DNA from: Clostridia bacterium
GTDB taxonomy: Bacteria; Bacillota; Clostridia; Christensenellales; QALW01
Length of the DNA stretch: 64,000 bases
Assembly: GCA_045594045.1 (NCBI GenBank)
Contig: JAZNXV010000024.1
Coordinates: 18,172 to 82,171 of the forward strand
Reading direction: 5' to 3'
Shown here: positions 6,600 through 36,292 of the stretch, piece after piece
Layout of the letters: every line of letters begins with the position of its first letter
How positions within the stretch are numbered: position 1 is the stretch's first letter
Notes under the pieces: model-generated
What the model saw: the letters and a program-made list of their open reading frames with translations, nothing else
The model's database searches: none
What the model was told of the DNA's origin: nothing
Position numbers and translations under genes: made by a program

Positions 6600-7397
6600 A
6601 TGAAGATAATTGACTTTCATACACACGTATATCCCGAAAAGATAGCCCAGCGTGCTACTGAAAACGTAGTTGGATTTTATGATTTAAAAGAGGGCTTAGG
6701 CGGAAAAATAGGAACAAGCAAGGTTTTGCTTGAATGTGGTAGGAATGCAGGGATAGAAAACTACGTAATTTTGCCCGTGGCGCTTAAACCAGAACACGTG
6801 CGCCATGTAAATCAAGGCATTTTAAATGAATTAAGCTTGCATAAAGAGTTTTACGGCTTTGGAACAGTCCACGCGGGAATGGAAAATATTTCAGAGGAAA
6901 TTGAGTTTATTTCGTCAGTAGGCTTAAAGGGAGTAAAAATTCATCCTGACACTCAAAAATTTAATATGGATGATGAAAGGCTTTTTCCTATGTACGACGC
7001 AATACAAGGAAAATTGCCGATACTTATTCACTGCGGAGATCCGCGATACGATTTTTCGCACCCTCGAAGGCTTAAAAGAATAATTGATAATTTTCCAAAG
7101 CTTACCGTAATAGGCGCACATTTAGGCGGTTGGATGCTTTTTGATGAGGCGTTGGCTCTTTTAAAAGACACAAACTGTTATTTTGATATTTCAAGCTCAA
7201 GAATGTTTATGCGCACGGATGGCATTTATAAATATATAAACGCCTATGGTGCTGACAGGCTTCTGTTCGGTAGTGATTTTCCTATTTGGGACCCGCAAAA
7301 AGAAGCAGAGTATTTTTTGTCTTTAAACATTTCTTTTGCTGATAAGGAAAAAATAGGCTATAAAAATGCGCTTTGTATTTTAGGTGAAAAAATATAA
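6600..7397 (+). CDS. Amidohydrolase_2 family metal-dependent hydrolase
   Basis: IIDFHTH, GVKIHP, IHCGD, AHLGG, LFGSDFP. Confidence 0.85.
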   Translation: MKIIDFHTHVYPEKIAQRATENVVGFYDLKEGLGGKIGTSKVLLECGRNAGIENYVILPVALKPEHVRHVNQGILNELSLHKEFYGFGTVHAGMENISEEIEFISSVGLKGVKIHPDTQKFNMDDERLFPMYDAIQGKLPILIHCGDPRYDFSHPRRLKRIIDNFPKLTVIGAHLGGWMLFDEALALLKDTNCYFDISSSRMFMRTDGIYKYINAYGADRLLFGSDFPIWDPQKEAEYFLSLNISFADKEKIGYKNALCILGEKI

Positions 7398-7404
7398 AAA
7401 ATGC

Positions 7405-7433
7405 TTGACAGATATAGTAAAATAGGATAATAT
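7405..7433 (+). promoter_or_regulatory. Sigma-A promoter of Leu T-box unit
   Basis: TTGACA (7405-7410), 17 nt spacer, TAATAT (7428-7433), just upstream of the T-box leader. Confidence 0.75.
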
Positions 7434-7454
7434 GATTTAAAATTAAAAATTAAA

Positions 7455-7710
7455 TGCGGTGAAGATATTAAATGTAAGCTGTCAGCGCTTAAAGAGAGTC
7501 GTTGGTTGGTGCAAAACGATAGGTTGCGCTTATGTTGTCTCGTATCGGAGCAGGGTTTCGGAATTTTAGTAAGAAATCTCGGGCGGTCCCGTAACAGACC
7601 AAGGGTTTGTTAGAACCTATTAAGTGGCTTTTTAATTAAAGCAATTCGGGTGGTACCGTGGTTGAATTTATCAATCATCCCGCAAAGAGTTATTTCTTTG
7701 CGGTTTTTTT
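7455..7710 (+). promoter_or_regulatory. T-box riboswitch, Leu specifier (CUC)
   Basis: GA motifs GGTGAAG / TCGGAGC, AG box AGAGAG, GGTG box, specifier CTC at 7539-7541 followed by a purine, AGTA and CCGTAA stem II elements, T-box GGGTGGTACCGTGG (TGGTACC 7651-7657), terminator CCGCAAAGA..TCTTTGCGG + T run. Confidence 0.9.
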
Positions 7711-7749
7711 GTTTTTACGGACATTTAATTCTATTTAAGGAGTATTTTT

Positions 7750-9123
7750 ATGAAAAAAATCATTGTATCGGACGTTTCATTTTTCGTTGCGGAAGAAATT
7801 AAAAAGGAGCTTACCTTCAGAGAAAAACTGAATATTGCCGCTTGCCTTGATGATTGCGGGGTGGACGTTATCGAACTTCCCGAAGTAACCTGCGATAAAG
7901 AAAGTGCTGTTATTTATAAAACAATAGCATCTACAGTTAAAAAGTGCGGAATTAACGTTTCTGTAAGCAACAGCGAAAATATCGAAGCTTCCTGGAATAT
8001 GATTAAAGATGCAAAAAATCCCAAAATCCAAGTTGTTTTGCCCATTTCTACGGTGCAGATGGAGTATCAGTATCACTTAAAAGCTGCTGTTATGCTTCAA
8101 AAAATCGGCGAGCTTTGTGCAAATGCAAAAAATCTCGGTGCATCGGTTGAATTTGTTGCAAAGGATGCCACAAGAGCTGAAGAAGGCTTTTTGGCAGAGT
8201 GTGCGCTTATTGCCTATGAAAACGGCGCAGAAGCTGTTACTGTTTGTGATGACAGCGGTAGCTTTTTCCCCGAAGATTTTGTTGCAACAGTTCAGGCGAT
8301 TAAAGCAAAGTGCGATATAAAGGTTTACGTTCAGCCTTCAAACGCTTTAAATATGGCGGCGGCTTGTGCAACCGAAGCAGTTAAAGCCGGTGCCGACGGT
8401 GTTAAAACAGCTATATTTGGAAATATGCTTACGGCAGATTCACTTGCTGATATTTTTAGAGCAAAAGGTGATAAGCTTAACGGCAAAATTTCGTTGGACA
8501 GCACAAAAATTCATCACGCATTAAATCAAATGTGTTCGACTTGCGCTGTAGAGGGTGTTGAATCGATTGCAAGTGACGGTAACAGTACGGTTCTTGATAA
8601 CAACAGCACGATTAAGGATATTGCCGTTAATGCCCGTGCTCTTGGATATGAACTTTCCGACGAGGATTGTGGCAAAGTATTTGAAGAATTTAAACGTGTT
8701 TGCGCCAAAAAATCAAGCATTGGCACGAAGGAGCTTGAAGCTATTATTGCAACAAGCGCAATGCAAGTTCCTTCAACTTATCACCTTGTTAGCTACGTAG
8801 TGAATAGCGGTAACATTATTACCGCAACTGCAAATATTGTTTTGGAGCGTGACGGTGAAACATTAAGCGGTGTAAGCACAGGTGACGGCCCTATTGACGC
8901 GGCATTCCACGCTATTGAGCAGATTGTCGGTCATCATTACGAGCTTGATGATTTCCAGATTCAGTCCGTTACAAAGGGAAGAGAGGCTATGGGCTCATCA
9001 CTTATCAGATTGAGAGCATCAGGCAAGCTTTATTCGGGCAACGGAATATCAACGGATATTATCGGTGCTTGTATTCGTGCTTACATAAATGCACTTAACA
9101 AAATTGTTTATGAGGAAAACTAA
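7750..9123 (+). CDS. LeuA (2-isopropylmalate synthase)-like protein with degenerate catalytic barrel and intact leucine-binding regulatory domain
   Basis: LeuA architecture; C-terminal GDGPIDAAFHAI and STDIIGACIRAYINALN conserved; RDGEQ replaced by FVAEE, HxHND replaced by QPSNA. Confidence 0.85.
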   Translation: MKKIIVSDVSFFVAEEIKKELTFREKLNIAACLDDCGVDVIELPEVTCDKESAVIYKTIASTVKKCGINVSVSNSENIEASWNMIKDAKNPKIQVVLPISTVQMEYQYHLKAAVMLQKIGELCANAKNLGASVEFVAKDATRAEEGFLAECALIAYENGAEAVTVCDDSGSFFPEDFVATVQAIKAKCDIKVYVQPSNALNMAAACATEAVKAGADGVKTAIFGNMLTADSLADIFRAKGDKLNGKISLDSTKIHHALNQMCSTCAVEGVESIASDGNSTVLDNNSTIKDIAVNARALGYELSDEDCGKVFEEFKRVCAKKSSIGTKELEAIIATSAMQVPSTYHLVSYVVNSGNIITATANIVLERDGETLSGVSTGDGPIDAAFHAIEQIVGHHYELDDFQIQSVTKGREAMGSSLIRLRASGKLYSGNGISTDIIGACIRAYINALNKIVYEEN

Positions 9124-9124
9124 T

Positions 9125-11578
9125 ATGAAACTTGCGTTTTCAACTAAAAATGTTCAAGCGACTTCTTTTGTAGATTTGTGTAATAAAACTGCTGAGTACG
9201 AGTTTTCGGGCTTTGAAATTTTTGATGCGGAAAGTGAAAAAACTCTGCATAACGATAGCATTTTTCACTCCGGCGAATTAAGTGGCGCTAAACGAAAGCT
9301 TGTTAACAGGCATATTGAAATCAGCGCTTTAACTTGTCCAACCCCCATTAAAAGTGGCTTTGATGGCGAAATAATAAAAAATTACGTTTCTATGGCGGCA
9401 ACTGCGGCAATTCCTGCGGTGGTTGTAAGCTTTGAAGAAATCTGCGACTTTGAAGAGCTTAAAGCTATTTTTGCCCCTGCTATTACTTTGGCAGAGCAGT
9501 TTGAGGTTTCTATTTTGCTTGAAACTGCAGGTCCTTTGGCTGATACAAAAAAGGTGCTCGAAGTTATTAGTGTTTTCGGCACTGCCACAATAGGCGTTGC
9601 GTGGAATATACGCGAAACTTTTTTCACAGCAAAAGAAACTGCCGATAACACCATTCAAACTCTTGGTGCGTATATTGAATACGTGCGTATTGGCGATAAA
9701 AAAGATGATAAAAACGTGATTTTGGGCGAAGGCGAATTGCCTGTAACTGATTTTATGAACGCTTTAAAATCACTTAATTATGACGGTTTTGTATGCGTTG
9801 ATTGGAATGACGAGATTACTAACCCCGATATTGTTTTAACACATTTTGTAAGCTTTATGGCTAATAACTCAATTAATGATGTTAAACAAAAGGAAGTTTA
9901 TTATAACCGTGCAAAAACAGGAACTTTCCCTTGGAAGAAATATGACGTTCTTGATATTACCTTTTCGCAGGTTCTTGACGAAATGGTTGAAAGATATCCT
10001 GACCAGTACGCCTTTAAATACACTACTCTTGACTATACAAGAACTTATTCTGAATTCAGAGATGACGTTGATAAAATTGCCGCGGCTCTTATTTCAGTAG
10101 GTGTTAAGCCCGGGCATCACGTTGCAATTTGGGCAACAAATATTCCACAGTGGTTTTTAACTTTCTGGGCAACGGTTAAAATAGGTGCAGTTTTAGTTAC
10201 TGTTAATACTGCCTACAAAATTCACGAGGCTGAATATTTGCTTCGTCAATCAGACACTCATACTCTTGTTATGATTGACTCTTGTAAAGATTCAAACTAC
10301 AAGGAAATCATTGAAGAACTTTGCCCTGAACTTAGTTCCTTGGAAGCGGGTAAACCGTTATATTCAAAGAAATTACCTTTCTTGCGTAACGTAATTACCG
10401 TAGGCTTTAAGATGAACGGTTGTCTTGAGTGGGATGAGTTTAGCCAGCGTGCAAGGCTTGTGCCTTACGAAGAAGTACGCCGCAGAGCTTCAAAGGTTAA
10501 GACAAATGACGTTTGCAATATGCAATATACGTCAGGCACAACGGGCTTCCCTAAAGGCGTTATGCTTACCCACAACAACATTATAAATAACGGCAAAATT
10601 ATAGGCGATAGAATGGACATTTCTACTGCCGACAGAATGATGATACAAGTGCCCATGTTCCATTGTTTCGGTATGGTGCTTTCTATGACGAATCTTATGA
10701 CACACGGTGGTACGATTTGTCCTATGCCGTATTTTTCACCAAAGTCTTCTTTGGCTTGCATAAACGACGAAAAAATTACTTGCTTTAACGGCGTTCCTAC
10801 AATGTTTATTGCGATGTTTAATCACGCTGATTTTGCAAAAACCGATTTTTCATATATGCGAACAGGTATTATGGCAGGCGCTAACTGTCCTCCCGACCTT
10901 ATGCGCAGAGCCGCAAAAGAAATGAATATGTCGGAAATTATAAGCGTTTACGGTCAAACGGAAGCTTCTCCCGGCTGCACAATGGGTGAGGTTAATGAGG
11001 ACTTGGACCATAGAGTTGAAACCGTTGGAAGCGCTTTCCCCGGCGTTGAATGTAAAATTATTGATCCCGAAACAGGCGAAGAACTCCCTGACGGCGAAAA
11101 CGGTGAGTTTGTTGCAAGGGGCTATAATATTATGAAGGGCTACTATAAAATGCCCAAGGCTACTGAACAAACTATTGATAAAGACGGTTGGCTTCACAGC
11201 GGTGACATCTGCTGCAGAACTTCCGACGGATATTATAAGGTTACAGGCCGCTTGAAAGATATGATTATTCGCGGTGGTGAAAACCTTTATCCAAGAGAAA
11301 TTGAGGAATTCTATCTTACTCATTCAAAGGTTAAAGACGTTCAGGTAGTAGGTGTGCCCGATGCCCGTTACGGTGAAGAAGCTTGCGCTTGGATTGTGCT
11401 TAAAAAAGGCGAAGAAGCTTTAGAAGCTGATATGCGCGCCTATGGTGAAGAACACATGGCAAAACACAAGGTTCCAAGGTATTTTATCTTTGTAAAAGAT
11501 TTTCCAATGAATGCTGCGGGAAAAATTTTAAAATACAAAATGCGTGAGGATTCTATTAAGCAATTAGGGTTAGACTAA
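9125..11578 (+). CDS. Xylose-isomerase-like TIM barrel fused to AMP-forming acyl-CoA synthetase (YngI-like)
   Basis: ATG 9125 after GAGGA; N-terminal AP_endonuc_2-like barrel (MKLAFST..., LGEGELP, YDG); C-terminal YTSGTTGFPKG, YGQTE, SGD, GRLKDMIIRGGEN, PMNAAGKILK. Confidence 0.9.
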   Translation: MKLAFSTKNVQATSFVDLCNKTAEYEFSGFEIFDAESEKTLHNDSIFHSGELSGAKRKLVNRHIEISALTCPTPIKSGFDGEIIKNYVSMAATAAIPAVVVSFEEICDFEELKAIFAPAITLAEQFEVSILLETAGPLADTKKVLEVISVFGTATIGVAWNIRETFFTAKETADNTIQTLGAYIEYVRIGDKKDDKNVILGEGELPVTDFMNALKSLNYDGFVCVDWNDEITNPDIVLTHFVSFMANNSINDVKQKEVYYNRAKTGTFPWKKYDVLDITFSQVLDEMVERYPDQYAFKYTTLDYTRTYSEFRDDVDKIAAALISVGVKPGHHVAIWATNIPQWFLTFWATVKIGAVLVTVNTAYKIHEAEYLLRQSDTHTLVMIDSCKDSNYKEIIEELCPELSSLEAGKPLYSKKLPFLRNVITVGFKMNGCLEWDEFSQRARLVPYEEVRRRASKVKTNDVCNMQYTSGTTGFPKGVMLTHNNIINNGKIIGDRMDISTADRMMIQVPMFHCFGMVLSMTNLMTHGGTICPMPYFSPKSSLACINDEKITCFNGVPTMFIAMFNHADFAKTDFSYMRTGIMAGANCPPDLMRRAAKEMNMSEIISVYGQTEASPGCTMGEVNEDLDHRVETVGSAFPGVECKIIDPETGEELPDGENGEFVARGYNIMKGYYKMPKATEQTIDKDGWLHSGDICCRTSDGYYKVTGRLKDMIIRGGENLYPREIEEFYLTHSKVKDVQVVGVPDARYGEEACAWIVLKKGEEALEADMRAYGEEHMAKHKVPRYFIFVKDFPMNAAGKILKYKMREDSIKQLGLD

Positions 11579-11615
11579 AACACGCTATTTTAGGCAGTTT
11601 AATTGTAAAAAATAG

Positions 11616-11644: not shown

Positions 11645-11662
11645 TAGCACATAATTTATAAA

Positions 11663-11933
11663 AGCTATGACGAAGACGGATTCGGTTGGCGCTTTATAGA
11701 GAGTCGGGGATGGTGGAAGCCCGATAAGTAAGTACTGAAAAATCCCATCACTTCTGAGCTGAAGGTCCGAAAGTTTTTGAACAAGTAGATGCCTTCCGTG
11801 ATTGCTGCGTAAAGGCAAAGGGCTTGTGTGAGCCTGAAGTGGCACAATGAATTTTGTGCAATTTGAGTGGTACCGCGGGAATTGTTTTTTCAAGACTCGT
11901 CTCAAAGTTTTTGAGACGAGTCTTTATTTTTTT
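11663..11933 (+). promoter_or_regulatory. T-box riboswitch, Ile specifier (AUC)
   Basis: GCTATGACGAAG / CTTCTGAGC GA motif, AGAGAG, GGTGGAA, specifier ATC at 11747-11749, T-box GAGTGGTACCGCGG (TGGTACC 11868-11874), terminator AAGACTCGTCTCAAA..TTTGAGACGAGTCTT + T run. Confidence 0.92.
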
Positions 11934-11947
11934 AAGGAGTGAGTAAA

Positions 11948-14215
11948 ATGAAAACTAACACCACATTGACACGTTTAATGGAAATCGCATCACGTATTAA
12001 GGAAATGCGCGAGATTATGGGATTTTCTGTTGAAGAAACAGCGCAAAAAACAGAAGTTTCTGTTGAAGAATATATTGCGTTTGAAAACGGTGAAAAAGAT
12101 ATTCCTTTTACTTTTATTCACAAGTGTGCTCTTTTGTTTGACGTGGAGCTTACAGAACTTTTGGAAGGTAAAGGTGCAAGACTTTCAAGTTATACTGTTA
12201 CCCGCAAAGGTCAGGGTCAGGATACTGCCAAAGAAAAGGGTATTGACATTAAAAACCTTGCTCCTAAATTCAGAGATAAAATTGCCGAGCCTTATTGGGT
12301 TAGATATGAATATTCTCCTGCACAGCAAAATATGCCCATTCACTTAACAAAGCATAGCGGACAGGAATTTGACCTTGTTTTAAGCGGTAAGTTAAAGGTG
12401 CAGATAGGCGACCATATTGAAATTTTAAACGAGGGTGACAGCATTTATTACGATAGTTCAACACCCCACGGTATGATAGCTGTTGACGGTGCCGATTGCG
12501 TTTTCTGTGCAGTTGTTCTTCCCGGAGAAGATACAAAGGAAGAAACTGTAAGAGAAAGCATCGTGTCTGCACAGTCTTCCCAAAAGCTCATTTGCGAAAA
12601 GTTTATTGAGTGTACTGAAGACGAAAACGGTGCATTAACCGATATTAAGTTTAAAAATATCGAAAAATTCAATTTCGGTTTTGATATTGTTGATGAAATA
12701 GCCAAGGCTTATCCTGATAAAACTGCTATGGTTTACGTTGATAAAAACCATAATGAGCGTAAATTTTCGTTTAAGGATATTAAAAAGGCTTCTAACCAAT
12801 GCGCTAACTATTTTACTTCCCTTGGAATTAAAAAGGGCGATAAGGTTATGCTTGTTTTAAAACGCCACTATCAATTCTGGTTTTCAATGATTGCCCTGCA
12901 CAAAATAGGTGCTGTGGCAATTCCCGCAACTAATCAGTTAAAGGAACACGATTTTGAATATCGTTTTAACGCCGCAGGGGTTAAGGCTATTGTTTGTACA
13001 AGCGACGGAGATACAACGCAAATTGTAGAAAACGCCGCACAAAATTGTCCTTGCCTTGAACATAAAATTATCGTGGGTAATCCGCGAGAAAATTGGCACG
13101 ATTTTAATAGCGAGTTTGCCCGTTTTTCAAGCAAATTCGAGCGTACTGACGATACCCCGGGCGGTGACGATGCAGCCCTTATGTTCTTTACGTCAGGTAC
13201 AACCGGCAATCCCAAAATGGCATGTCACAGGCACACTTACGGCTTAGGTCATTTTGTAACGGCTAAATACTGGCATTGTTGCGAACGCGATGGCTTGCAT
13301 TTTACAATTTCCGATACGGGTTGGGGTAAATCTCTTTGGGGCAAGCTTTACGGGCAGTGGCTTTGCGAAGGCGCTGTGTTTGTATATGACTTTGACCGCT
13401 TTGATGCCCACGACATTCTTCCTATGTTTAAAAAGTACGGTATAACAACGTTCTGCGCACCGCCTACTATGCTCCGTATGTTTATTAAAGAAGATTTGTC
13501 AAAATATGATTTCTCTTCGCTTCATTACATAACAACAGCGGGTGAAGCATTGAACCCTGAAGTTTATAAACAATTTAAGGCCGCTACGGGTCTTGAAATT
13601 ATGGAAGGCTTCGGTCAGACGGAAACTACTCTTACTATTTGTAATTTAAGGGGAACAAAGCCCAAAATCGGTTCAATGGGTCTTGCTTCGCCACAGTTTG
13701 ACGTGGATATAGTTGACCCTGACGGAAATAGCGTTCCAAGCGGCGAAACAGGTGAAATTGTAATCAGAACCGATAAAACAGTTCCTTGCGGATTGTTTAA
13801 GGAATATTACAACAACAAAGAACTTACGGACGAAGCCTGGCACGACGGAATGTATCACACAGGTGATACTGCCTGGCGCGACGAGGACGGCTACTTCTGG
13901 TACGTAAGCCGTATTGATGACGTTATCAAATCCTCTGGTTATCGTATAGGCCCCTTTGAAATCGAAAGTGTAATTATGGAACTTCCTTACGTGCTTGAAT
14001 GCGGCGTTTCTGCGGCACCTGATGAGATTCGAGGTCAGGTTGTCAAGGCAAGCATTGTTTTAACCAAGGGAACAGAGGGCACAGAGGAACTTAAAAAGGA
14101 AATTCAAGAGTACGTTAAGTCCCACACTGCACCGTATAAATACCCGAGAATTATTGTATTTTGCGATGAGCTGCCTAAAACTATCAGCGGAAAGATTCAA
14201 CGCAATAAACTTTAA
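11948..14215 (+). CDS. XRE HTH + cupin + medium/branched-chain acyl-CoA synthetase fusion (paralog 1)
   Basis: ATG 11948 after AAGGAG; N-terminal HTH (IKEMREIMGFSVEETA), cupin (HSGQEF..YYDSSTPHGM), ligase motifs FTSGTTGNPK, GFGQTET, YHTGD, PKTISGKIQR. Confidence 0.92.
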   Translation: MKTNTTLTRLMEIASRIKEMREIMGFSVEETAQKTEVSVEEYIAFENGEKDIPFTFIHKCALLFDVELTELLEGKGARLSSYTVTRKGQGQDTAKEKGIDIKNLAPKFRDKIAEPYWVRYEYSPAQQNMPIHLTKHSGQEFDLVLSGKLKVQIGDHIEILNEGDSIYYDSSTPHGMIAVDGADCVFCAVVLPGEDTKEETVRESIVSAQSSQKLICEKFIECTEDENGALTDIKFKNIEKFNFGFDIVDEIAKAYPDKTAMVYVDKNHNERKFSFKDIKKASNQCANYFTSLGIKKGDKVMLVLKRHYQFWFSMIALHKIGAVAIPATNQLKEHDFEYRFNAAGVKAIVCTSDGDTTQIVENAAQNCPCLEHKIIVGNPRENWHDFNSEFARFSSKFERTDDTPGGDDAALMFFTSGTTGNPKMACHRHTYGLGHFVTAKYWHCCERDGLHFTISDTGWGKSLWGKLYGQWLCEGAVFVYDFDRFDAHDILPMFKKYGITTFCAPPTMLRMFIKEDLSKYDFSSLHYITTAGEALNPEVYKQFKAATGLEIMEGFGQTETTLTICNLRGTKPKIGSMGLASPQFDVDIVDPDGNSVPSGETGEIVIRTDKTVPCGLFKEYYNNKELTDEAWHDGMYHTGDTAWRDEDGYFWYVSRIDDVIKSSGYRIGPFEIESVIMELPYVLECGVSAAPDEIRGQVVKASIVLTKGTEGTEELKKEIQEYVKSHTAPYKYPRIIVFCDELPKTISGKIQRNKL

Positions 14216-14253: not shown

Positions 14254-14268
14254 TTTTTTAATTTAAAA

Positions 14269-14540
14269 GGCATTGACGAAGAGGGCTTCTGGCTTTTCGG
14301 CAAAGAGAAACGGCGGGTGGTGCGAGCCGTTGCGAAAGTCAGTCTGCTTGTAGCTTCTGAGCCGAAAGGAAGAAAGAGCTTTTTGCTTAAGTAGAACCTT
14401 TCCGTGATTGCTGCGTAAACGCATAAGGCTTGTTCGAGTCTGAGGGGCGTGGCTTATTGCTACGCAATTTGAGTGGTACCGCGGGTAATTTAGCTCGTCT
14501 CAAAGTTATCATATCTTTGAGGCGGGCTTTTGTTATTTTT
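14269..14540 (+). promoter_or_regulatory. T-box riboswitch, Val specifier (GUA)
   Basis: GGCATTGACGAAG / CTTCTGAGCC GA motif, AGAGA, GGTGCGA, specifier GTA at 14350-14352, T-box GAGTGGTACCGCGG (TGGTACC 14474-14480), terminator AGCTCGTCTCAAAG..CTTTGAGGCGGGCT + T run. Confidence 0.92.
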
Positions 14541-14567: not shown

Positions 14568-16862
14568 ATGAAAACAGCAACCGGACTTGAATTCAAGATT
14601 CGGGAGATGGCCCAAAGAATTAAAACCTTGCGTGAAATTATTGGACTTTCTCAACAAGAAATGGCAACTAAAACCGGTGTTTCATTAGAAGAGTATTCTT
14701 CTTGTGAAGCGGGGGAAAGTGACTTGAACTTTGCGTTTTTGTATAAATGCGCAATAGCACTTAACGTTGACGTTACTGATATTATCGAAGGCACAAGCCC
14801 TCGTCTTGCAGGCTACACCGTTACCCGTGCCGGCGAAGGTCAGGAAATTCAAAAGGCGCACGGAATGACCTACTATAACCTTGCACCTACCTTTAAAAAC
14901 CGTATTGCAGAGCCTTTGTACGTTGTTTTTCACTATGATGAAAATGCACAGAACAAGGAAATTGAGCTTACTACTCACGAGGGTCAGGAATGTGATATCG
15001 TTGTAAAGGGTGCTCTTAAGGTTCAGGTGGGTGACCACGTTGAAATTTTGCACGAGGGCGACAGCATTTATTACGACAGCTCTATGCCTCACGGTATGAT
15101 TGCCGTTGAAAACAGCGATTGTATTTTCTATGCGTTTGTGCTTAATTCAAATGATAATGCGGCAAAGCTCGTTCACGGCGGTGCTCGTGACGTGATTTTT
15201 GCACCAAGCAAAAAGCAGGAAAAGCAACAAAAACGCATTTGGGAAGATTATATTATTCCCGTTGAAGACGAAAACGGTGTTTTAAAGTCTATTTCCTTCA
15301 AAAATGAAGAAACCTTTAACTTTGCCTTTGACGTTATTGATAAATTAGGTCGGGAGTACCCCGAAAAGACTGCAATAATGCATATTGCTGAAGATAAAAC
15401 AGAAAAGAGAATCACTTTTGGTGAGCTTAAACGTGCATCTTCTCAAACAGCAAACTACTTTAAGTCTTTAGGAATTAAAAAAGGCGATAAGGTAATGCTT
15501 ATTTTAAAGCGTCATTATCAGTTCTGGTACGCTATACTTGCACTTCATAAAATCGGCGCTATTGCAATTCCCGCAACTAATCAGTTAAAGGAACACGATA
15601 TTACGTATCGATTCAACAAGGCAGGCGTAAAAATGGTTGTTTGTACAAGCGACGGAATTGTTGCTGATGAGGTTGATAAGGCGGCAGAATTAAGTCCTAT
15701 CCTTGAAACAAAAATCATTGTAGGTAAAAGCCGTGAAGGCTGGCGCAATTTTGATGAAGAATATAGTCTTTATACAGGAAAAATGTATAAAGATGAAAAT
15801 ACTGCTTGTGGCAGCGACCCAATGCTTATGTACTTTACGTCAGGTACAACGGGCAACCCCAAATTAGCAGTGCATAATTACAAATATCCTCTCGGTCATT
15901 TTGTAACGGCTAAATATTGGCATTGTGTAAATCCCGACGGATTGCACTTAACCGTTGCTGATACAGGTTGGGCGAAGGCGGCATGGGGTAAGCTTTACGG
16001 TCAATGGCTCTGTGAAGCAGGTATTTTCGTTTATGATTTTGACCGCTTTGATGCAAATGACATTTTGCCCATGTTTAAAAAATACGGCATCACAACCTTC
16101 TGTGCTCCGCCTACAATTTTAAGAATGATGGTAAAGCAGGATATTTCAAAATTTGATTTATCTACCATTGAACATATGACTACCGCAGGCGAAGCCTTAA
16201 ACCCCGAGGTTTTCAGGCAATTTGAGCTTGCAACGGGCCTGCAGATAATGGAAGGCTTTGGACAGACAGAAACTACTGTTGCAGTTGCTAATCTGGCAGG
16301 TACAAAGTCAAGGCTTGGCTCAATGGGTAAGCCCGTACCGCTTTACGATATTCAGCTCGTTGATTCAAACGGCGAACCCGTAGCTGTAGGTGAGGTTGGC
16401 GAAATTGTTATTAACGTTTCCGAAAAAACACCTTGCGGCTTATTCAACGGCTATTATACTGATGAAGAAAAAACTGCTGAATGTTGGCACGATGGCTTCT
16501 ATCACACAGGCGATACTGCTTGGCGCGATGAGGACGGCTATTTCTGGTACGTAGGCAGAGTGGATGACGTTATTAAGTCTTCAGGTTACCGTATCGGTCC
16601 TTTTGAAATTGAAAACGTTATTATGGAGCTTCCTTATGTGCTTGAGTGCGGCGTTTCTGCTGAACCTGATGAAGTTCGCGGTCAGGTAGTTAAAGCAAGT
16701 ATTGTGCTTGTTAAAGGAACAGAAGCTACTGACGAGCTTAAGAAAGAAATTCAAGAGTACGTTAAACAACGTACCGCACCTTACAAATATCCCCGTGTAG
16801 TAGTTTTCAGGGACGAGCTTCCTAAAACTACCAGCGGAAAAATTCAAAGAAATAAATTATAA
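14568..16862 (+). CDS. XRE HTH + cupin + medium/branched-chain acyl-CoA synthetase fusion (paralog 2)
   Basis: ATG 14568 after GGAGGAG; same architecture as 11948-14215 (IKTLREIIGLSQQEMA, HEGQEC..YYDSSMPHGM, FTSGTTGNPK, PKTTSGKIQR). Confidence 0.92.
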   Translation: MKTATGLEFKIREMAQRIKTLREIIGLSQQEMATKTGVSLEEYSSCEAGESDLNFAFLYKCAIALNVDVTDIIEGTSPRLAGYTVTRAGEGQEIQKAHGMTYYNLAPTFKNRIAEPLYVVFHYDENAQNKEIELTTHEGQECDIVVKGALKVQVGDHVEILHEGDSIYYDSSMPHGMIAVENSDCIFYAFVLNSNDNAAKLVHGGARDVIFAPSKKQEKQQKRIWEDYIIPVEDENGVLKSISFKNEETFNFAFDVIDKLGREYPEKTAIMHIAEDKTEKRITFGELKRASSQTANYFKSLGIKKGDKVMLILKRHYQFWYAILALHKIGAIAIPATNQLKEHDITYRFNKAGVKMVVCTSDGIVADEVDKAAELSPILETKIIVGKSREGWRNFDEEYSLYTGKMYKDENTACGSDPMLMYFTSGTTGNPKLAVHNYKYPLGHFVTAKYWHCVNPDGLHLTVADTGWAKAAWGKLYGQWLCEAGIFVYDFDRFDANDILPMFKKYGITTFCAPPTILRMMVKQDISKFDLSTIEHMTTAGEALNPEVFRQFELATGLQIMEGFGQTETTVAVANLAGTKSRLGSMGKPVPLYDIQLVDSNGEPVAVGEVGEIVINVSEKTPCGLFNGYYTDEEKTAECWHDGFYHTGDTAWRDEDGYFWYVGRVDDVIKSSGYRIGPFEIENVIMELPYVLECGVSAEPDEVRGQVVKASIVLVKGTEATDELKKEIQEYVKQRTAPYKYPRVVVFRDELPKTTSGKIQRNKL

Positions 16863-16877
16863 TAGGAGAGTATTAAA

Positions 16878-17957
16878 ATGAAGTATGAAATTTCAGTAAC
16901 AAAAACAACAACTCCTAAGGCTCATCCCGCCGATGAATCAAAGCTTGGCTTTGGTAAAGTTTTCACCGACCATATGTTCCTTATGGACTATTCAGATGAA
17001 AAAGGCTGGTATGATGCAAGAATCGTTCCTTTTGGTCCTATTGCAATTCATCCTGCATCTACAGTACTTCACTATGGCGCAGAAATCTTTGAAGGTATGA
17101 AGGCATATCGCACAGAAAATGGCGAAATTGCACTTTTTAGACCTATGGAAAACATTAAGCGTCTTAATAATTCTGCAGAGCGTCTTTGCTTGCCCGCTCT
17201 TGACGAGGAAGGCTGTCTTGAAATTTTAAAAACTCTTGTTGAGCTTGAAAAGGATTGGGTTCCGTCTTCTGAGGGCACGTCGCTTTATCTCAGACCTTTC
17301 TTGTTCGGTAACGACCCCCATTTAGGTGTTCACGCCGTTCATAATGCAACCTTTGCAGTAATTTGTTCGCCTGTAGGCGCTTATTATGCCGAAGGCATTA
17401 ACCCTGTTAAAATTGCTATTGAAAACGTTGACGTTCGTGCGGTTCGCGGTGGCACAGGTTATGCTAAGTGCGGCGGTAACTATGCGGCAAGCCTTCGTGC
17501 AGGTCAAAGAGCAGAAGAAAGAGGCTACACTCAAGTGCTTTGGCTTGACGGTGTTGACAGAAAGTATATTGAAGAAGTTGGTAGTATGAACGTTATGTTC
17601 AAGGTGAACGGCAAAATCATCACTCCCGCTCTTACCGGCTCAGTTTTACCCGGTATTACAAGAAAATCTTGTATCGAGCTTTTAAAAGAGTGGGGATACG
17701 AGGTTGAAGAACGCTTATTCAGCGTTGACGAGCTTTTTGAAGCTGCCGAAAACGGTACTCTTGAAGAAGCATGGGGAACAGGTACTGCTGCTGTTGTTTC
17801 ACCTATTGGTCATCTTTTCTATGACGGTAAGGAATATACCGTTTCTGATAACAAAATCGGCGCTCTTACCCAAAAGCTTTACGACAATCTTACGGGTATT
17901 CAATGGGGCAAAATTGAAGACAAGCATAATTGGCTTGTAAAGGTTTGCAATGGCTGA
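16878..17957 (+). CDS. ilvE: Branched-chain amino acid aminotransferase
   Basis: LGFGKVFTDHM, LHYGAEIFEGMKAY, YLRP, AKCGGNYAASL, IEEVGSMN, LPGITR, GTAAVVSP. Confidence 0.96.
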   Translation: MKYEISVTKTTTPKAHPADESKLGFGKVFTDHMFLMDYSDEKGWYDARIVPFGPIAIHPASTVLHYGAEIFEGMKAYRTENGEIALFRPMENIKRLNNSAERLCLPALDEEGCLEILKTLVELEKDWVPSSEGTSLYLRPFLFGNDPHLGVHAVHNATFAVICSPVGAYYAEGINPVKIAIENVDVRAVRGGTGYAKCGGNYAASLRAGQRAEERGYTQVLWLDGVDRKYIEEVGSMNVMFKVNGKIITPALTGSVLPGITRKSCIELLKEWGYEVEERLFSVDELFEAAENGTLEEAWGTGTAAVVSPIGHLFYDGKEYTVSDNKIGALTQKLYDNLTGIQWGKIEDKHNWLVKVCNG

Positions 17958-18615
17958 TTATAAACGTGTTTATATTATTGCAGGACATTACGGCAGTGGA
18001 AAAACAAACATTGCCGTAAACCTTGCACTTAAAATGAAGCAAGACGGTTTTAACGTGCGTATTGCCGATTTAGATATTGTTAACCCGTATTTCAGAACAA
18101 AGGATAGCGCCAAAGAGCTTGAAAATGCAGGGGTTGAACTTATTTCACCTGCTTTTGCCAACACAAACGTTGATTTGCCTGCACTTCCTCAAGAAATTTA
18201 CGGTGTTATTCAGCGAAAAGACGCACTTGCGGTGCTTGACGTTGGCGGTGATGACCGAGGCGCTTATGCTCTTGGCAGATACGCACCGAGCATCAAGGAA
18301 GAAAATAACTATGAAATGTGCTTTGTAGTTAATTTCTATCGTCCGCTAACACAAACAGCAGAGGAAGCATTGGAGATTATGCGGGAAATTGAACAAGCCG
18401 CTTCAATTAAGTTCACTACAATAATTAACAATTCTAATCTTGGTAACGATACCACAAGCGAAACAGTTTTAGCTTCTATAGAAAAAGCTGAGGAGCTCTC
18501 GCAAATTTCGGGATTGCCTATATTGTTCAATTCCGTAAAAGAAGGTATAAATAATGTTCCTGACAGCTTTTCTTTGAGCTTGCAGGAAAAATATTTTGAT
18601 ATAAAGGAGTCTTAA
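17950..18615 (+). CDS. Uncharacterised P-loop NTPase (MinD/CobQ-like) associated with vor genes
   Basis: Walker A GHYGSGKT, DLDIVNPYFR, LDVGGD. Confidence 0.75.
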   Translation: MADYKRVYIIAGHYGSGKTNIAVNLALKMKQDGFNVRIADLDIVNPYFRTKDSAKELENAGVELISPAFANTNVDLPALPQEIYGVIQRKDALAVLDVGGDDRGAYALGRYAPSIKEENNYEMCFVVNFYRPLTQTAEEALEIMREIEQAASIKFTTIINNSNLGNDTTSETVLASIEKAEELSQISGLPILFNSVKEGINNVPDSFSLSLQEKYFDIKES

Positions 18616-18616
18616 A

Positions 18617-18823
18617 ATGGCAAAGGTTACTTTTAATGCAGACGCTTGCAAGGGCTGCGGTCTTTGTGTAGAGGCTTGCCCTAAAAAGATTTTGATTTTA
18701 GCAAAAGATAAGCTTAACGCGAAAGGTCATTCTCCTGCAGAAATGACTGACCAAGAAAAGTGCATCGGTTGCGCTTTCTGTGCAACAATGTGCCCTGATT
18801 GCGTTATAACAGTTGAAAAATAA
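18617..18823 (+). CDS. 2x[4Fe-4S] ferredoxin, delta subunit of 2-oxoacid:ferredoxin oxidoreductase
   Basis: CKGCGLCVEACP and CIGCAFCATMCP. Confidence 0.93.
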   Translation: MAKVTFNADACKGCGLCVEACPKKILILAKDKLNAKGHSPAEMTDQEKCIGCAFCATMCPDCVITVEK

Positions 18824-18855
18824 GTTTAAGCTAATTTAGCAGATTGGAGATAAAT

Positions 18856-19917
18856 ATGGCAGAAAAGGTTTTAATGAAGGGTAATGAAGCTATTGCAGAA
18901 GCCGCTATTAAAGCAGGCTGCAAGCTTTATTTTGGTTATCCTATTACTCCCCAAACTGAAATTGCCGCTTATATGGCAAAGCGTATGCCCAAAATCGGCG
19001 GTACATTTCTTCAGGCAGAGAGTGAAGTTTCAGCAATAAATATGGTTTACGGTGTTGCGGGCGCAGGTTTTAGAGTTATGACGTCCTCTTCAAGCCCCGG
19101 AATTTCCTTAAAGCAAGAAGGTATTTCGTATATTGCCGGTGCAGATTTGCCCGCTTTAATCGTTAACGTTCAGCGTGGCGGCCCCGGTCTTGGTGGTATT
19201 CAGCCTTCACAGTCTGACTATTTTCAGGCAACAAAGGGCGGCGGACACGGTGACTATCACTTAATCGTTCTTGCCCCTGCTTCTGTTCAAGAAATGGCAG
19301 ATTTAACAGTTAAGGCTTTCGACCTTTCCGATAAATACAGAGTTCCTGCGATGCTTCTTGCTGACGGTACAATGGGTCAAATGATGGAGCCTGTTGAATT
19401 GCCCGAAATTGAAGAAAAAACAGTAGATAAGCCTTGGGCAGTAACGGGAACAAAGATGAAGAGAAAGCACAACGTTATTAACTCTCTGTATCTTAACCCC
19501 GAGAAATTAGAGCAAACCAATATTGAAAGATTTGCCCGCTATAAGCAAATTGAAGAAAATGAATGCTTATGGGAAGAATATATGATGGAGGACGCCGAAT
19601 ACTGTGTTGTTGCCTTTGGTATTGCTGCACGTGTTTCTAAAAACGCTGTTACAGCCGCAAGAAAGGCAGGCATAAAGGTTGGCTTGATTCGCCCCATAAC
19701 ACTTTGGCCATTCCCCACAAAAGCTTTAAGAAGCGCCGCAGATAAGGTTAAAGGCTTTGTTTCCGTTGAGCTTTCAATGGGTCAGATGATAGAAGATATC
19801 AAGCTTGCAACTGAATGCAAGCGTCCCGTAGAGCTTTGCAACCGCAGTGGCGGTATGATTCCCACACCTGAGCACGTGCTCGAAACCATAGAAAAACTTG
19901 TAAAGGAGGCAAAATAA
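18856..19917 (+). CDS. vorB: 2-oxoisovalerate-type 2-oxoacid:ferredoxin oxidoreductase, alpha-type subunit
   Basis: MKGNEAIAEAAI, GYPITPQ, QAESE, TSSSSPG, RGGPGLG.IQPSQSDY. Confidence 0.9.
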   Translation: MAEKVLMKGNEAIAEAAIKAGCKLYFGYPITPQTEIAAYMAKRMPKIGGTFLQAESEVSAINMVYGVAGAGFRVMTSSSSPGISLKQEGISYIAGADLPALIVNVQRGGPGLGGIQPSQSDYFQATKGGGHGDYHLIVLAPASVQEMADLTVKAFDLSDKYRVPAMLLADGTMGQMMEPVELPEIEEKTVDKPWAVTGTKMKRKHNVINSLYLNPEKLEQTNIERFARYKQIEENECLWEEYMMEDAEYCVVAFGIAARVSKNAVTAARKAGIKVGLIRPITLWPFPTKALRSAADKVKGFVSVELSMGQMIEDIKLATECKRPVELCNRSGGMIPTPEHVLETIEKLVKEAK

Positions 19918-20669
19918 TGAAAGTGTTTGAAAAACCGAAGGCTTTAACTGATGCAACCTTTCACTATTGTCCCGGTTGCACTCACGGTATTATTCACCGC
20001 CTTGTAGCTGAAGCTATTGACGAGCTTGGCATTGAAGGTAACACTATCGGCGTTGCTCCCGTTGGCTGTGCAGTTATGGCATATGATTATTTTGCTTGCG
20101 ATATGGTGGAAGCCGCTCACGGCAGAGCACCTGCTATTGCTACAGGCTTAAAGCGCGCAATGCCCGAAAATATCATCTTTACTTATCAAGGCGACGGCGA
20201 CCTTGCTTCTATCGGTATGGCAGAAACAGTACACGCCGCTACAAGAAATGAAAACATCACTATTATTTTTGTTAACAATGCAATTTACGGTATGACAGGC
20301 GGTCAAATGGCACCTACGTCGCTTCCCGGTCAGGTAACACAGACCTCTCCTTACGGTCGTGACGTTTTAACTCAGGGCTTCCCGATTAAAGTAAGCGAGT
20401 TACTTTCCTCCCTTGACGGTCCTGAATATATCGAGCGTGTTGCGGTTAACAATGTTAAAAACATCAGAAACGCCAAAAAGGCCATTTTAAAGGCATTTAA
20501 GAACCAAACCGAAGGAAAAGGCTTCTCACTTGTTGAAATCGTTTCTTCGTGCCCTACAAACTGGGGAATGACGCCCCAGAAGGCTCTTGAATGGATTGAT
20601 GAAAAAATGTTGCCTTATTATCCTTTAGGTGTATATAAGGATAAAAGCGCCGCAAAGAAGGAGGACTAA
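19917..20669 (+). CDS. 2-oxoacid:ferredoxin oxidoreductase, TPP-binding beta subunit
   Basis: YCPGCTHG, HGRAPA, YQGDGD, NNAIYGMTGGQMAP, CPTNWG. Confidence 0.92.
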   Translation: MKVFEKPKALTDATFHYCPGCTHGIIHRLVAEAIDELGIEGNTIGVAPVGCAVMAYDYFACDMVEAAHGRAPAIATGLKRAMPENIIFTYQGDGDLASIGMAETVHAATRNENITIIFVNNAIYGMTGGQMAPTSLPGQVTQTSPYGRDVLTQGFPIKVSELLSSLDGPEYIERVAVNNVKNIRNAKKAILKAFKNQTEGKGFSLVEIVSSCPTNWGMTPQKALEWIDEKMLPYYPLGVYKDKSAAKKED

Positions 20670-20672
20670 AAA

Positions 20673-21209
20673 ATGACAACTCAAATTCTTATTGCAGGCT
20701 TTGGTGGTCAAGGCGTTTTGTTTGCAGGTAAGTTTATTGCATATAAAGGTCTTGTAGAAGGCAAGGAATTAAGCTGGTTGCCCTCCTACGGTCCTGAAAT
20801 GCGTGGCGGTACTGCTAACTGCAGTGTTATTTTAAGCGATACGCCTGTAGGTTCACCGATAGTAGCTAATCCTGACGTGCTTATGGCGATGAATCTTCCT
20901 TCACTTGATAAATATGAAGATGCAACTGTTTCCGGCGGAAGCATTTTTATTGACAGCACCTTAATTAAGCGTAAGGTTAATAGGGAAGATGTTAAGGCAT
21001 TTTATATTCCCGCAACACAAATGGCTATTGATGCAGGCGTTCCTACGTTGGCTAATATGATTATGGTTGGCAAAATGCTTAAAGAAACGGGCGTTCTCTC
21101 CTTTGACGGTATGGTTGATACCTTAAAGAAGATAGTATCAGCAAGGCGTGCTGAATTGCTTGATATGAACTTAAAGGCTCTTGAAGCAGGATATAATTAC
21201 GAAGGTTAA
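20673..21209 (+). CDS. 2-oxoacid:ferredoxin oxidoreductase, gamma subunit
   Basis: AGFGGQGV, PSYGPEMRGG. Confidence 0.92.
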   Translation: MTTQILIAGFGGQGVLFAGKFIAYKGLVEGKELSWLPSYGPEMRGGTANCSVILSDTPVGSPIVANPDVLMAMNLPSLDKYEDATVSGGSIFIDSTLIKRKVNREDVKAFYIPATQMAIDAGVPTLANMIMVGKMLKETGVLSFDGMVDTLKKIVSARRAELLDMNLKALEAGYNYEG

Positions 21210-27735: not shown

Positions 27736-28401
27736 TTATCTTTTTACAACGATATTCGTTTGGGTTTTAACAATACACTGTGCAGGGAACACACCGCGGA
27801 GTGCATTAAGCGGATAAACCTGCGTGTTTTTACCTATTATTGTACCGGGGTTAAGAACGCAGCCACAGCCTACGTAGGCATAGTCACCTAAAATTCCTCC
27901 GATTTTACGCATACCTGTTATATAATCGGTTTCGCCATGGATTACAACGGGCTTGTTATCGGATTTTAGATTTGAGCATATTGAACCTGCGCCCATATGG
28001 GCTTTGTTGCCTAAAACAGAATCTCCTACGTAATTATAATGGGGCACTTGAACGTTGTTGAGGAGTATGCAGTTTTTCAGCTCGCTTGAATTGCCAATGA
28101 CGCAATTTTCACCCGTAATAACGCTTCCGCGTAAAAAAGCGCCCGGGCGGATTTCTGTGCCGTGACCGATTATGCAAGGACCTTCGATGGTAGCGGTGGG
28201 ATAAATTTTAACGTTTTTACCAATCAATATATTATCGCCCATAGGCTTAAAATCATCTAAGCCGTCCTTTAAAAGAAAAAGAATATGATTCTTTATTTCT
28301 TTAATTATATCCCAAGGATATTCACAGCAATCAAACAGTGAGGTTAAGTAGGGGACTGTACAATCAAAAAGCTCCTCGGTTTTTACAAGCTTCTTAAACA
28401 T
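27736..28401 (-). CDS. Left-handed beta-helix acetyltransferase, GlmU C-terminal-like (no nucleotidyltransferase domain)
   Basis: Hexapeptide repeats; IRPGAFLRG, GNSSELKN, PHYNYVGDSVLG, GAGSICSN. Confidence 0.8.
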   Translation of the reverse strand: MFKKLVKTEELFDCTVPYLTSLFDCCEYPWDIIKEIKNHILFLLKDGLDDFKPMGDNILIGKNVKIYPTATIEGPCIIGHGTEIRPGAFLRGSVITGENCVIGNSSELKNCILLNNVQVPHYNYVGDSVLGNKAHMGAGSICSNLKSDNKPVVIHGETDYITGMRKIGGILGDYAYVGCGCVLNPGTIIGKNTQVYPLNALRGVFPAQCIVKTQTNIVVKR

Positions 28402-30007: not shown

Positions 30008-30107
30008 AAAAATCTCCTTTAAAACAATTATATTTGAAGTGTGCAACAAAATAATTAAGTAAGAGCATATAACACACAAACAGACGTTAAAAAATTACAA
30101 CATAAAT

Positions 30108-36060: not shown

Positions 36061-36292
36061 AATACTCCTTAAAAATACGGTTAAATGCGATTTTACCGTT
36101 TCATTTAATTAAATGACAACCGTAATGTAAATTAATTAAAAAGCAAAAGTGACTTTTTTCTTATTATACACGGAATTATAAAAAAGTCAAATTTTAAGCC
36201 GCACAGCAAAAGAAATAGGTAAAATGTGTATTTTAACCTTTATTTTGTAAATAATAGAAAGACAAATGCAAAAAAAGCAAATGGAGGTAAAA

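Follow-up and report, generated by a model that had tools for sequence, protein, structure and literature searches.

A pseudo-LeuA that has lost its active site and kept its regulatory domain: a candidate leucine-sensing partner of an acyl-CoA ligase in gut and rumen Clostridia

Introduction

The bacterial short form of isopropylmalate synthase, LeuA (NCBIfam NF002086 and TIGR00973; structures 3ewb, 3rmj, 1sr9 and 3fig), joins a TIM barrel to a C-terminal regulatory domain, and in some bacteria leuA and ilv-leu operons are controlled by leucine-specific T-box leaders (Geobacter leuA, in the available part of PMC2494555). For the Mycobacterium tuberculosis enzyme, the accessible text of two studies names R80, E218 and an accessory domain with His379 and Tyr410 as needed for activity or allostery (PMC10464499; PMC9860122). 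Here we describe a LeuA paralogue, referred to as pseudo-LeuA, that is encoded at positions 7750..9123 (+) of a 64,000-nucleotide stretch of a Clostridia bacterium genome (GTDB Christensenellales; GenBank assembly GCA_045594045.1, contig JAZNXV010000024.1, positions 18,172 to 82,171). This whole stretch is called the window below. Pseudo-LeuA resembles LeuA in its barrel, its regulatory domain, the motifs of the latter, its grouping in the tree and its control by a Leu T-box. Unlike LeuA, it has neither the metal ligands, nor the GERAGN motif, nor accessory subdomain I, is about 50 residues shorter, scores 242 bits against an equivalog cut-off of 532, occurs in a genome without leuB and leuC, and is paired with an acyl-CoA ligase.

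Among known systems, the closest in its logic is HisZ, a catalytically dead paralogue of histidyl-tRNA synthetase (HisRS) that acts as the histidine-sensing regulatory subunit of the ATP phosphoribosyltransferase HisG in a complex that has been solved. What the two would share is that an enzyme related to the same amino acid has a dead paralogue, which partners the first enzyme of a pathway to that amino acid and would carry the end-product site. Unlike HisZ, which serves a classical pathway, pseudo-LeuA would partner a salvage-pathway enzyme; its binding is suggested by a weak complex prediction, and its sensing role is one that we infer.

Carboxylation of isovalerate to leucine is established rumen biochemistry (PMC7356843, which in its available part cites Allison 1962, 1966). 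The gene content of the locus fits the activation, ferredoxin-dependent carboxylation and transamination of that pathway, and the carriers are gut and rumen Clostridia. Pseudo-LeuA, T-box gating and ligases with fused N-terminal domains set the locus apart from the classical description of the pathway. MbcS, the short branched-chain acyl-coenzyme A (acyl-CoA) synthetase of Staphylococcus aureus (available text of PMC10026030 and PMC11167679), is the best model for two further ligases downstream of the pair. Unlike MbcS, these score under the model's cut-off of 850 bits and carry helix-turn-helix (HTH)-cupin N-terminal domains and T-boxes, and the ligase next to pseudo-LeuA falls in a PRK12583-like subfamily. 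Literature searches, with subscription journals and supplements outside their reach, returned no publication on a dead LeuA or a pseudoenzyme isopropylmalate synthase and none that assigns genes or a regulator to the isovalerate activation step, the route itself being no more than mentioned. Nothing on such a system was found in the literature on T-boxes, ferredoxin oxidoreductases and acyl-CoA synthetases either, and CoA is not mentioned in the available part of PMC2494555.

Results

Pseudo-LeuA keeps the LeuA fold and lacks its active site

In the 457-residue product, a degenerate DRE-TIM barrel (residues 1-225) is joined by a shortened linker (226-325) to a LeuA_dimer regulatory domain (326-457). 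Pfam recognizes HMGL-like at 17-225 with 85.7 bits and LeuA_dimer (PF08502) at 326-452 with 107.5 bits (E 5.9e-31, gathering score 24.9). All LeuA equivalog models of NCBIfam stay far under their cut-offs, the best of them being NF002086 (242.5 bits, cut-off 532), with TIGR00973 at 216.1 bits (cut-off 598.7). An AlphaFold2 (AF2) model with a predicted local distance difference test (pLDDT) score of 83.6 has the DRE-TIM barrel fold, as judged from the Foldseek superposition on Listeria LeuA 3ewb (TM 0.90, root-mean-square deviation 1.7). The best Foldseek match is the leucine-bound M. tuberculosis LeuA 3fig, with an E value of 4.1e-22 over 543 columns that include the regulatory domain.

An earlier note on this DNA, made from the sequence alone, had read the DRE motif as DVSFFVAEE, the metal-binding HxHND motif as QPSNA and the GERAGN motif as gone, and had proposed a pseudoenzyme on this basis. 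These readings stand when the protein is aligned to 3ewb and to 12 canonical LeuAs from genomes of the same order. Residues 8-16 are DVSFFVAEE where LeuA has DTTLRDGEQ; in family-profile alignments to 3ewb, 3rmj, 6e1j and 3eeg the family consensus opposite DTTLRDGEQ is sDvTLRalaee. Residues 195-199, QPSNA, stand opposite HCHDD of 3ewb in a phmmer alignment. The metal ligands, that is, the Asp of DTTLRDGEQ and both His of HxH, are absent from the window copy and from all 32 aligned relatives. In place of the DRE-motif Arg that binds the substrate, the window copy has Phe; TLR is retained in many relatives.

The loss is more thorough than first noted, since accessory subdomain I is also gone. 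Comparison of 79 family members with the 12 canonical LeuAs reveals that EAGF is replaced by eLp, ATSpiH by PvSTvQ, EFSaEDaSR by efva.DAtRAe, PDTVGY by cDDaG and HCHnDLG by vqpSd.l, and that the GiGERAGNA motif is deleted. A further deletion removes about 50 residues of accessory subdomain I (consensus ...NAFaHEaGIHQHG...TYEIMTPeSiG), among them the catalytic His of HxxGIHxxG. Like the metal ligands, the GERAGN motif and this block are missing from all 32 aligned relatives. Metal ligands and the catalytic accessory block are thus missing family-wide, as a pseudoenzyme would have it, and the motif losses are not due to chance, because the same losses run through a large and conserved family. 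To judge from its residues, the product of 7750-9123 is very likely without catalysis as an isopropylmalate synthase.

A widespread family under purifying selection

The matches listed by a word-indexed search with pseudo-LeuA include 120 clusters at 59-67% identity (453-496 residues). An exhaustive profile search (1.84 billion representatives) found 7464 proteins with E values of 0.001 or lower, 469 of which reached 1e-30 or lower. Among the best 150 matches listed, about 115 are full-length, single-stretch matches of 453-497 residues with at least about 300 bits, each standing for a cluster at 50% identity; canonical-length LeuAs (about 500-516 residues, matched in two stretches) start near 268 bits in the same search. 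Distant members, down to 30% identity, are without the same catalytic motifs. A protein atlas yielded generic cluster names only. A relative is encoded in at least 530 species-genome stretches, the best 80 of which come from gut and rumen Clostridia; the counts out of 80 loci given below rest on these best 80 (L numbers denote single loci).

The coding sequence is intact in all 79 members extracted (440-475 residues, no internal stops). Median dN/dS, the ratio of nonsynonymous to synonymous substitution rates (Nei-Gojobori, NG86; 21 independent pairs), is 0.09 in the barrel, 0.095 in the linker and 0.026 in the regulatory domain, with mean pairwise identities of 0.53, 0.44 and 0.82, respectively. 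Selection is accordingly purifying in all three parts, neither frameshifts nor neutral decay was found among the 79 coding sequences, and the idea of the earlier note that the gene has been kept for a function holds. The same is true of its description of the C-terminal allosteric domain as well preserved: this is the best-conserved part of the protein.

Several barrel residues at positions of LeuA catalytic motifs are invariant in the family, namely D8, E42-P44, S100-K111, D139, D167-D168, P196-S197 and K219. The strand ends in the model place them at the usual active-site face of a TIM barrel, where they form a new fixed set.

The pseudo family forms one clade (100/100) on a long stem in a maximum-likelihood tree and groups, with moderate support (90/60), with bacterial-type LeuA, apart from CimA-like and long-form LeuA proteins. 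LeuA models also outscore CimA models on pseudo-LeuA (242 vs 37 bits). Two proteins of about 500 residues, P0255 and P0263, have a regulatory domain close to that of the pseudo family and a catalytic part that is only partly degenerate: one reads HSQ where LeuA has HxH, and subdomain I is scrambled in the second. Both could represent stages between LeuA and the catalytically dead form.

A dedicated pairing with an acyl-CoA ligase

The pseudo-LeuA frame is full length and ends with TAA at 9121-9123, one base before the ATG at 9125 of an acyl-CoA ligase, an arrangement that had been described correctly from the sequence; a GAGGA lies about 10 nucleotides upstream of this start. Among sequencing runs listed for positions 7400-11600 there was no RNA run, and five DNA runs contained small shares (0.05-0.08). 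The ligase (9125..11578, +), a putative isovalerate-CoA ligase, consists of an AMP-binding part at about 285-817 (Pfam 316 bits) and an N-terminal, degenerate xylose-isomerase-like TIM barrel at 1-248 (AP_endonuc_2, 37.7 bits), carried on a flexible tether. The profile of the TIM domain matches MJ1311 (3wqo) with E 1.1e-7, and in the model this domain has a pLDDT of about 90, with linker residues 250-267 under 50. PRK12583 of NCBIfam scores 672 bits, under its cut-off of 832, and the solved structures most similar to it are those of feruloyl-, fatty-acyl- and malonyl-CoA ligases (<=257 bits), which give no pointer to isovalerate. Stand-alone relatives of the TIM domain, of about 270-300 residues and scoring 85-130 bits, are common in a sample of 151 genomes spread evenly over the order.

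A gene for a TIM::ligase fusion directly follows the pseudo-LeuA gene in 77 of the 80 loci, and the other three loci stop at a contig edge. The median distance from stop to start is 2 nucleotides; it is <=5 nucleotides in 51 of 71 parsed loci and <=37 nucleotides in all 71. The order sample, with LeuA-like genes counted at E 1e-60 or better, agrees with this: each of the 20 genomes with a LeuA-like gene also has the TIM-ligase. The LeuA-like family and the ligase TIM domain have no detectable homology (hhalign probability 0.7%).

Two analyses bear on physical contact. Complex prediction for pseudo-LeuA with the ligase TIM domain gave a score of 0.51 (runs 0.51, 0.54 and 0.47), compared with 0.01 for the best of three controls, on a scale where 116 of 157 solved complexes and 2 of 215 mismatched pairs reach the mark. 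Between runs, at least 73% of the contacts are shared, and the pLDDT of the partner is at least 84. Evolutionary distances of the LeuA-like barrel track those of the ligase TIM domain across 59 loci when the AMP-binding domain is controlled for (partial r 0.50, reached by 0 of 500 permutations; reverse control 0.085, reached by 48 of 500), a result that is a lead only, because fast-evolving domains carry more signal. The functional tie to the downstream ligase that the earlier note had put forward thus finds support in adjacency, in spacing and, weakly, in the complex score. Pseudo-LeuA is likely a dedicated partner of a leucine-gated ligase that probably activates isovalerate.

T-box leaders and pathway context

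Upstream of the pair stands a T-box leader (7450..7712, +) whose specifier is CUC (Leu). Rfam RF00230 matches at 7450-7685 with 110.4 bits (gathering score 93; model positions 1-219), and a terminator follows at about 7680-7712, with the hairpin CCGCAAAGA...TCTTTGCGG and a T-run. The CTC specifier is found upstream of the pseudo-LeuA gene in 72 of the 80 loci with a refined script (61 of 80 with a crude version, the misses being mostly parsing failures), and an Rfam T-box at gathering score lies directly upstream in 17 of 20 short loci. A regular expression did not find the T-box motif in L013, L032 and L067, and L083 is without upstream DNA; L040, L061, L063 and L068 were mis-parsed or left unparsed by the script, and an Rfam T-box was found in the first three of these. 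Tandem T-box motifs about 250-320 nucleotides apart were seen upstream of the LeuA-like gene in L074, L076, L077, L080, L081, L082 and L084. These operons also hold the genes for a branched-chain aminotransferase (BCAT) and the oxidoreductase, the first motif of the tandem reads CTC, and the second reads ATC in L082; such tandems could provide double gating by two amino acids.

Two more leaders occur in the window, one with an AUC (Ile) specifier (11658..11907, +; 96.0 bits against 93) and one with a GUA (Val) specifier plus terminator (14264..14530, +). The latter scores 81.6 bits (E 2.2e-18), under the gathering score of 93, in a match clipped by the end of the stretch searched. The CUC and AUC specifiers were read by eye from the cmscan alignments. 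Each of the three leaders stands before an AMP-forming acyl-CoA ligase, with the pseudo-LeuA gene in between in the case of the Leu leader.

The ligase behind the Ile T-box (11948..14215, +), a putative 2-methylbutyrate-CoA ligase, and the one behind the Val T-box (14568..16862, +), a putative isobutyrate-CoA ligase, are both MbcS-like, with 456 and 449 bits for the NCBIfam MbcS model (cut-off 850), and both are HTH_3-cupin::ligase fusions (in the former, Pfam HTH_19, Cupin_2 and AMP-binding). The former starts at ATG 11948 and not at GTG 11939. The latter starts at ATG 14568, behind the terminator and with a GGAGG ribosome-binding site; the alternative TTG 14430 falls inside the Val T-box. 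HTH_3 and cupin domains at the N-terminus of these ligases have the layout of a small-molecule-binding transcription factor, and the only solved match is the HTH_3 regulator 1y9q (E 8e-4). For isoleucine and valine, such a fusion of an enzyme to a DNA-binding sensor may correspond to pseudo-LeuA.

Further downstream lie the genes for the branched-chain amino acid aminotransferase IlvE (16878..17957, +; NF009897, 483 bits against a cut-off of 307) and for a four-subunit 2-oxoacid:ferredoxin oxidoreductase of the Vor type (VOR; 18617..21209, +), with delta at 18617-18823, alpha (VorB) at 18844-19917, beta at 19917-20669 and gamma at 20673-21209, all on the forward strand. VorB alpha scores 570.6 bits against a cut-off of 399; beta, gamma and delta score under their cut-offs, and the delta frame has two CxxCxxCxxxCP motifs. 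The genes for ligases, oxidoreductase and aminotransferase are thus on one strand in the window. The pair stands in one string with BCAT and VOR also in Christensenellaceae-type loci and in genome G092 of the order sample; single strings of ligase, oxidoreductase and aminotransferase genes are those of L073-L084 and L110.

In the source genome (94.84% complete), nothing reaches the cut-off for leuA, leuB or leuC, and ilvC and ilvD are without a match. In the order sample, canonical LeuA is present in 69 of 151 genomes and a LeuA-like gene in 20, and only G092 has both; the resulting figures (1 of 20 genomes with a LeuA-like gene, 68 of the other 131) describe a pattern rather than a statistical test, since the genomes are related and the counts overstate their independence. 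Because T-box-controlled ligases stand together with IlvE and VorB where the classical pathway is absent, branched short-chain acids are most likely the starting material from which this cluster builds branched-chain amino acids. The simplest reading is that an acid is converted to its acyl-CoA, reductively carboxylated to the 2-oxoacid and transaminated, with each ligase gated by the tRNA of its product.

The regulatory domain and its ligand

The regulatory domain of pseudo-LeuA shares the motifs GDGPxDA, L..D[FY], G..A.G and STDI..A..AY.NA.N with real LeuAs. Its model has the two-fold beta-beta-beta-alpha arrangement (E345-378/H381-393 and E398-434/H437-456). A weak profile alignment to 1sr9/3fig (E 1.1) places GNGP-L535-A536 opposite GDGP-I382-D383 and V551, Y554, A565 and A567 opposite L399, F402, A413 and G415, the last four of which are invariant or nearly so in the family. 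These 1sr9/3fig residues reportedly line the leucine site (Koon et al. 2004). A phmmer search of the C-terminal part against solved structures gave only 3f6g (E 0.91), which a profile found at E 0.1; the alignments to 3f6g, 1sr9 and 3fig are usable only because the fold search agrees with them. The PF08502 domain of CimA works alone as an isoleucine sensor, according to the available text of PMC13381585, and the domain is therefore a self-contained type of sensor whose specificity varies, as far as that source goes. A link of pseudo-LeuA to leucine is made much more likely by the Leu T-box, by a cluster leading from branched acids to amino acids and by the absence of leuABCD.

Discussion

We propose that pseudo-LeuA, being unable to condense acetyl-CoA with 2-oxoisovalerate, assists, without catalysis of its own, the ligase whose gene starts after a single intervening base. 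This ligase would most likely convert isovalerate into isovaleryl-CoA, the Vor-type ferredoxin oxidoreductase would turn this into 2-oxoisocaproate by reductive carboxylation, and IlvE would aminate the 2-oxoacid to leucine. Uncharged tRNA-Leu would turn on transcription of the pair through the T-box. The dimeric regulatory domain would most likely bind leucine, as it does in real LeuA, and damp the ligase, so that the salvage route gains end-product feedback at its first, ATP-consuming step in the way that LeuA provides it for the classical route. We consider a leucine-sensing, non-catalytic pseudo-LeuA that partners the isovalerate ligase the best explanation of the locus as a whole, at about even odds (0.5), and a leucine sensor that damps the ligase the best single mechanism on offer, plausible at similar odds. 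A more detailed version remains tentative and falls somewhat short of an even chance: LeuA was stripped of catalysis when these Clostridia gave up the isopropylmalate pathway, was retained as a leucine sensor that can be detached, and now docks on the tethered TIM domain of the ligase to feedback-inhibit the first step of the isovalerate route.

Several observations weigh against this proposal. The TIM-ligase fusion is found in 32 genomes of the order sample, and 12 of these have no LeuA-like gene at E 1e-60; at the 11 loci of such ligases that were fetched, a LeuA-like neighbour is absent from all 11, and in 3 of them a T-box reaches the gathering score, with CTC as the specifier every time. 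The ligase therefore does not need pseudo-LeuA, and ligase, TIM domain and leucine gating are older or wider than pseudo-LeuA itself; pseudo-LeuA is an accessory, which fits a regulator and also fits other accessory roles. The T-box alone already provides leucine-responsive control. The complex score of 0.51 falls in a band where passes are often wrong, given that at scores <=0.60 the mark was reached by only 18 of the 157 solved complexes and by both mismatches, and it offers weak support for binding. A fused LeuA-like::ligase form was not found in a search of proteins of 801-2285 residues, which is weak evidence. The substrate isovalerate is assigned purely from context, because no NCBIfam model reaches its cut-off on the ligase and the solved structures include no close relative whose substrate is known. 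The invariant residues at catalytic-motif positions point to a barrel that has preserved its own functional pocket or interface. Accessory subdomain I relays the allosteric signal in real LeuA (available text of PMC9860122), and with this subdomain deleted any signal in pseudo-LeuA must take a new path. Finally, PF08502 domains can be isoleucine-specific (available part of PMC13381585), and the genomes counted are related, which makes the counts look more independent than they are.

The pairing could also be explained by a scaffold subunit without ligand sensing, a dimer that holds two ligases together or bridges the ligase to Vor for direct hand-over of isovaleryl-CoA, with the regulatory domain serving as a dimerization module. 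The Pfam label of the domain, "allosteric (dimerisation) domain", would suit such a role, as would the tight gene pairing, a conserved barrel face as expected of an interface and a ligase TIM domain on a flexible tether; the complex prediction (0.51 against 0.01 for the best control) and the distance tracking (partial r 0.50) lean weakly in the same direction. A scaffold would not lead one to expect that the regulatory domain is far more constrained than the barrel (dN/dS 0.026 vs 0.09; identity 0.82 vs 0.53) or that it retains motifs of ligand-binding LeuAs beyond the usual demands of dimerization, and related ligases manage without pseudo-LeuA; we regard it as unlikely. Alternatively, the barrel may have been neofunctionalized, with a metal-free pocket that binds or acts on isovalerate, isovaleryl-AMP, isovaleryl-CoA or 2-oxoisocaproate, making the protein a new enzyme or a subunit that senses or presents the substrate. 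That the catalytic-motif positions carry a different fixed set (STVQMEYxYHxK, DA[ST]RAE, CDD[SA]G and QPS[DN]) and that barrel dN/dS is 0.09 speaks for this possibility, as does the recurrence of three TIM-barrel proteins (pseudo-LeuA, the ligase N-domain and an amidohydrolase in 43 of 80 loci), which is more than simple regulation seems to need. It is nevertheless rather unlikely, as the route through ligase, Vor and IlvE requires no extra chemistry, the Ile and Val ligases are without such a partner, related TIM-ligases under Leu T-boxes do without pseudo-LeuA, and the acetyl-CoA and catalytic accessory block is deleted.

A sensor with another ligand (isoleucine, valine or 2-oxoisocaproate), or one of opposite sign in which leucine activates or stabilizes the ligase, would be in keeping with the varying specificity of PF08502, the CimA domain being an isoleucine binder in the available account (PMC13381585). 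The moderately supported grouping (90/60) of the family with bacterial-type rather than CimA-like proteins, the lead of LeuA over CimA models (242 vs 37 bits) and the gating of the operon by a Leu T-box make it improbable. As to a functionless leuA remnant that decays after loss of the leucine pathway, missing leuB and leuC and vanished catalytic residues are what it would predict. A decaying pseudogene would hardly leave 79 of 79 coding sequences intact, dN/dS at 0.03-0.09, about 115 full-length clusters at 50% identity among the best 150 matches, and synteny and T-box conserved across families, and we reject it as close to inconceivable.

Should pseudo-LeuA prove to be a leucine-sensing partner of the ligase, an allosteric module would have been transferred from one leucine route to another that is unrelated to it. 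Fibre degraders of the rumen and gut are known to use branched short-chain acids as growth factors. The route from isovalerate to leucine has been known since the labelling work of the 1960s, and the locus offers candidate genes for all of its steps together with an explicit regulatory design in the form of three amino-acid-specific T-boxes. The decades-old rumen pathway would, if the proposal is right, gain its first genes and a two-layer control by tRNA charging and end-product sensing, in which the three T-boxes and the HTH-cupin domains of the other two ligases would have a share. Pseudo-LeuA would be a rare and testable example of an enzyme reused as the sensor of another pathway that leads to the same end product, with a bearing on the evolution of allostery and relevance to the design of leucine biosensors. 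Pathway and auxotrophy calls in uncultured gut bacteria can mislead, because such genes are annotated as "2-isopropylmalate synthase" or "hypothetical".

Other genes of the window and the genome

Upstream of the Leu T-box, an Amidohydrolase_2 (PF04909) gene at 6600..7397 (+) scores 86.4 bits in Pfam. The solved relatives of its product are an uncharacterized protein (3irs, the best of them) and reversible decarboxylases. Such a gene occurs in 43 of the 80 loci and, depending on the locus, stands ahead of the T-box or immediately behind the ligase; it was noted in the window and in L045, L048, L051, L052, L055, L056, L058, L060, L065, L072, L078 and L110. The 3' end of ilvE is overlapped by a P-loop ATPase gene (CbiA/ParA-like by Pfam; 17950..18615, +) that is without a match in NCBIfam and is kept between the BCAT and oxidoreductase genes in 9 of the 80 loci, always with VOR.

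The only other HMGL-like gene of the genome (contig C4, 62869-63888; L122) is listed with 478 residues and falls outside both LeuA and CimA in the tree, at the end of a very long branch. The genome also has an aconitase-like frame of 736 residues and an isocitrate-dehydrogenase-like frame of 401 residues, and the HMGL-like gene may encode a Re-citrate-synthase-type enzyme. Elsewhere in the window, a phosphoglucomutase/phosphomannomutase with an N-terminal HTH_3 domain is encoded at 28394-30079 (-), another fusion of an enzyme to a DNA-binding domain, and a very long open reading frame at 36266-44065 (+) encodes 2599 residues.

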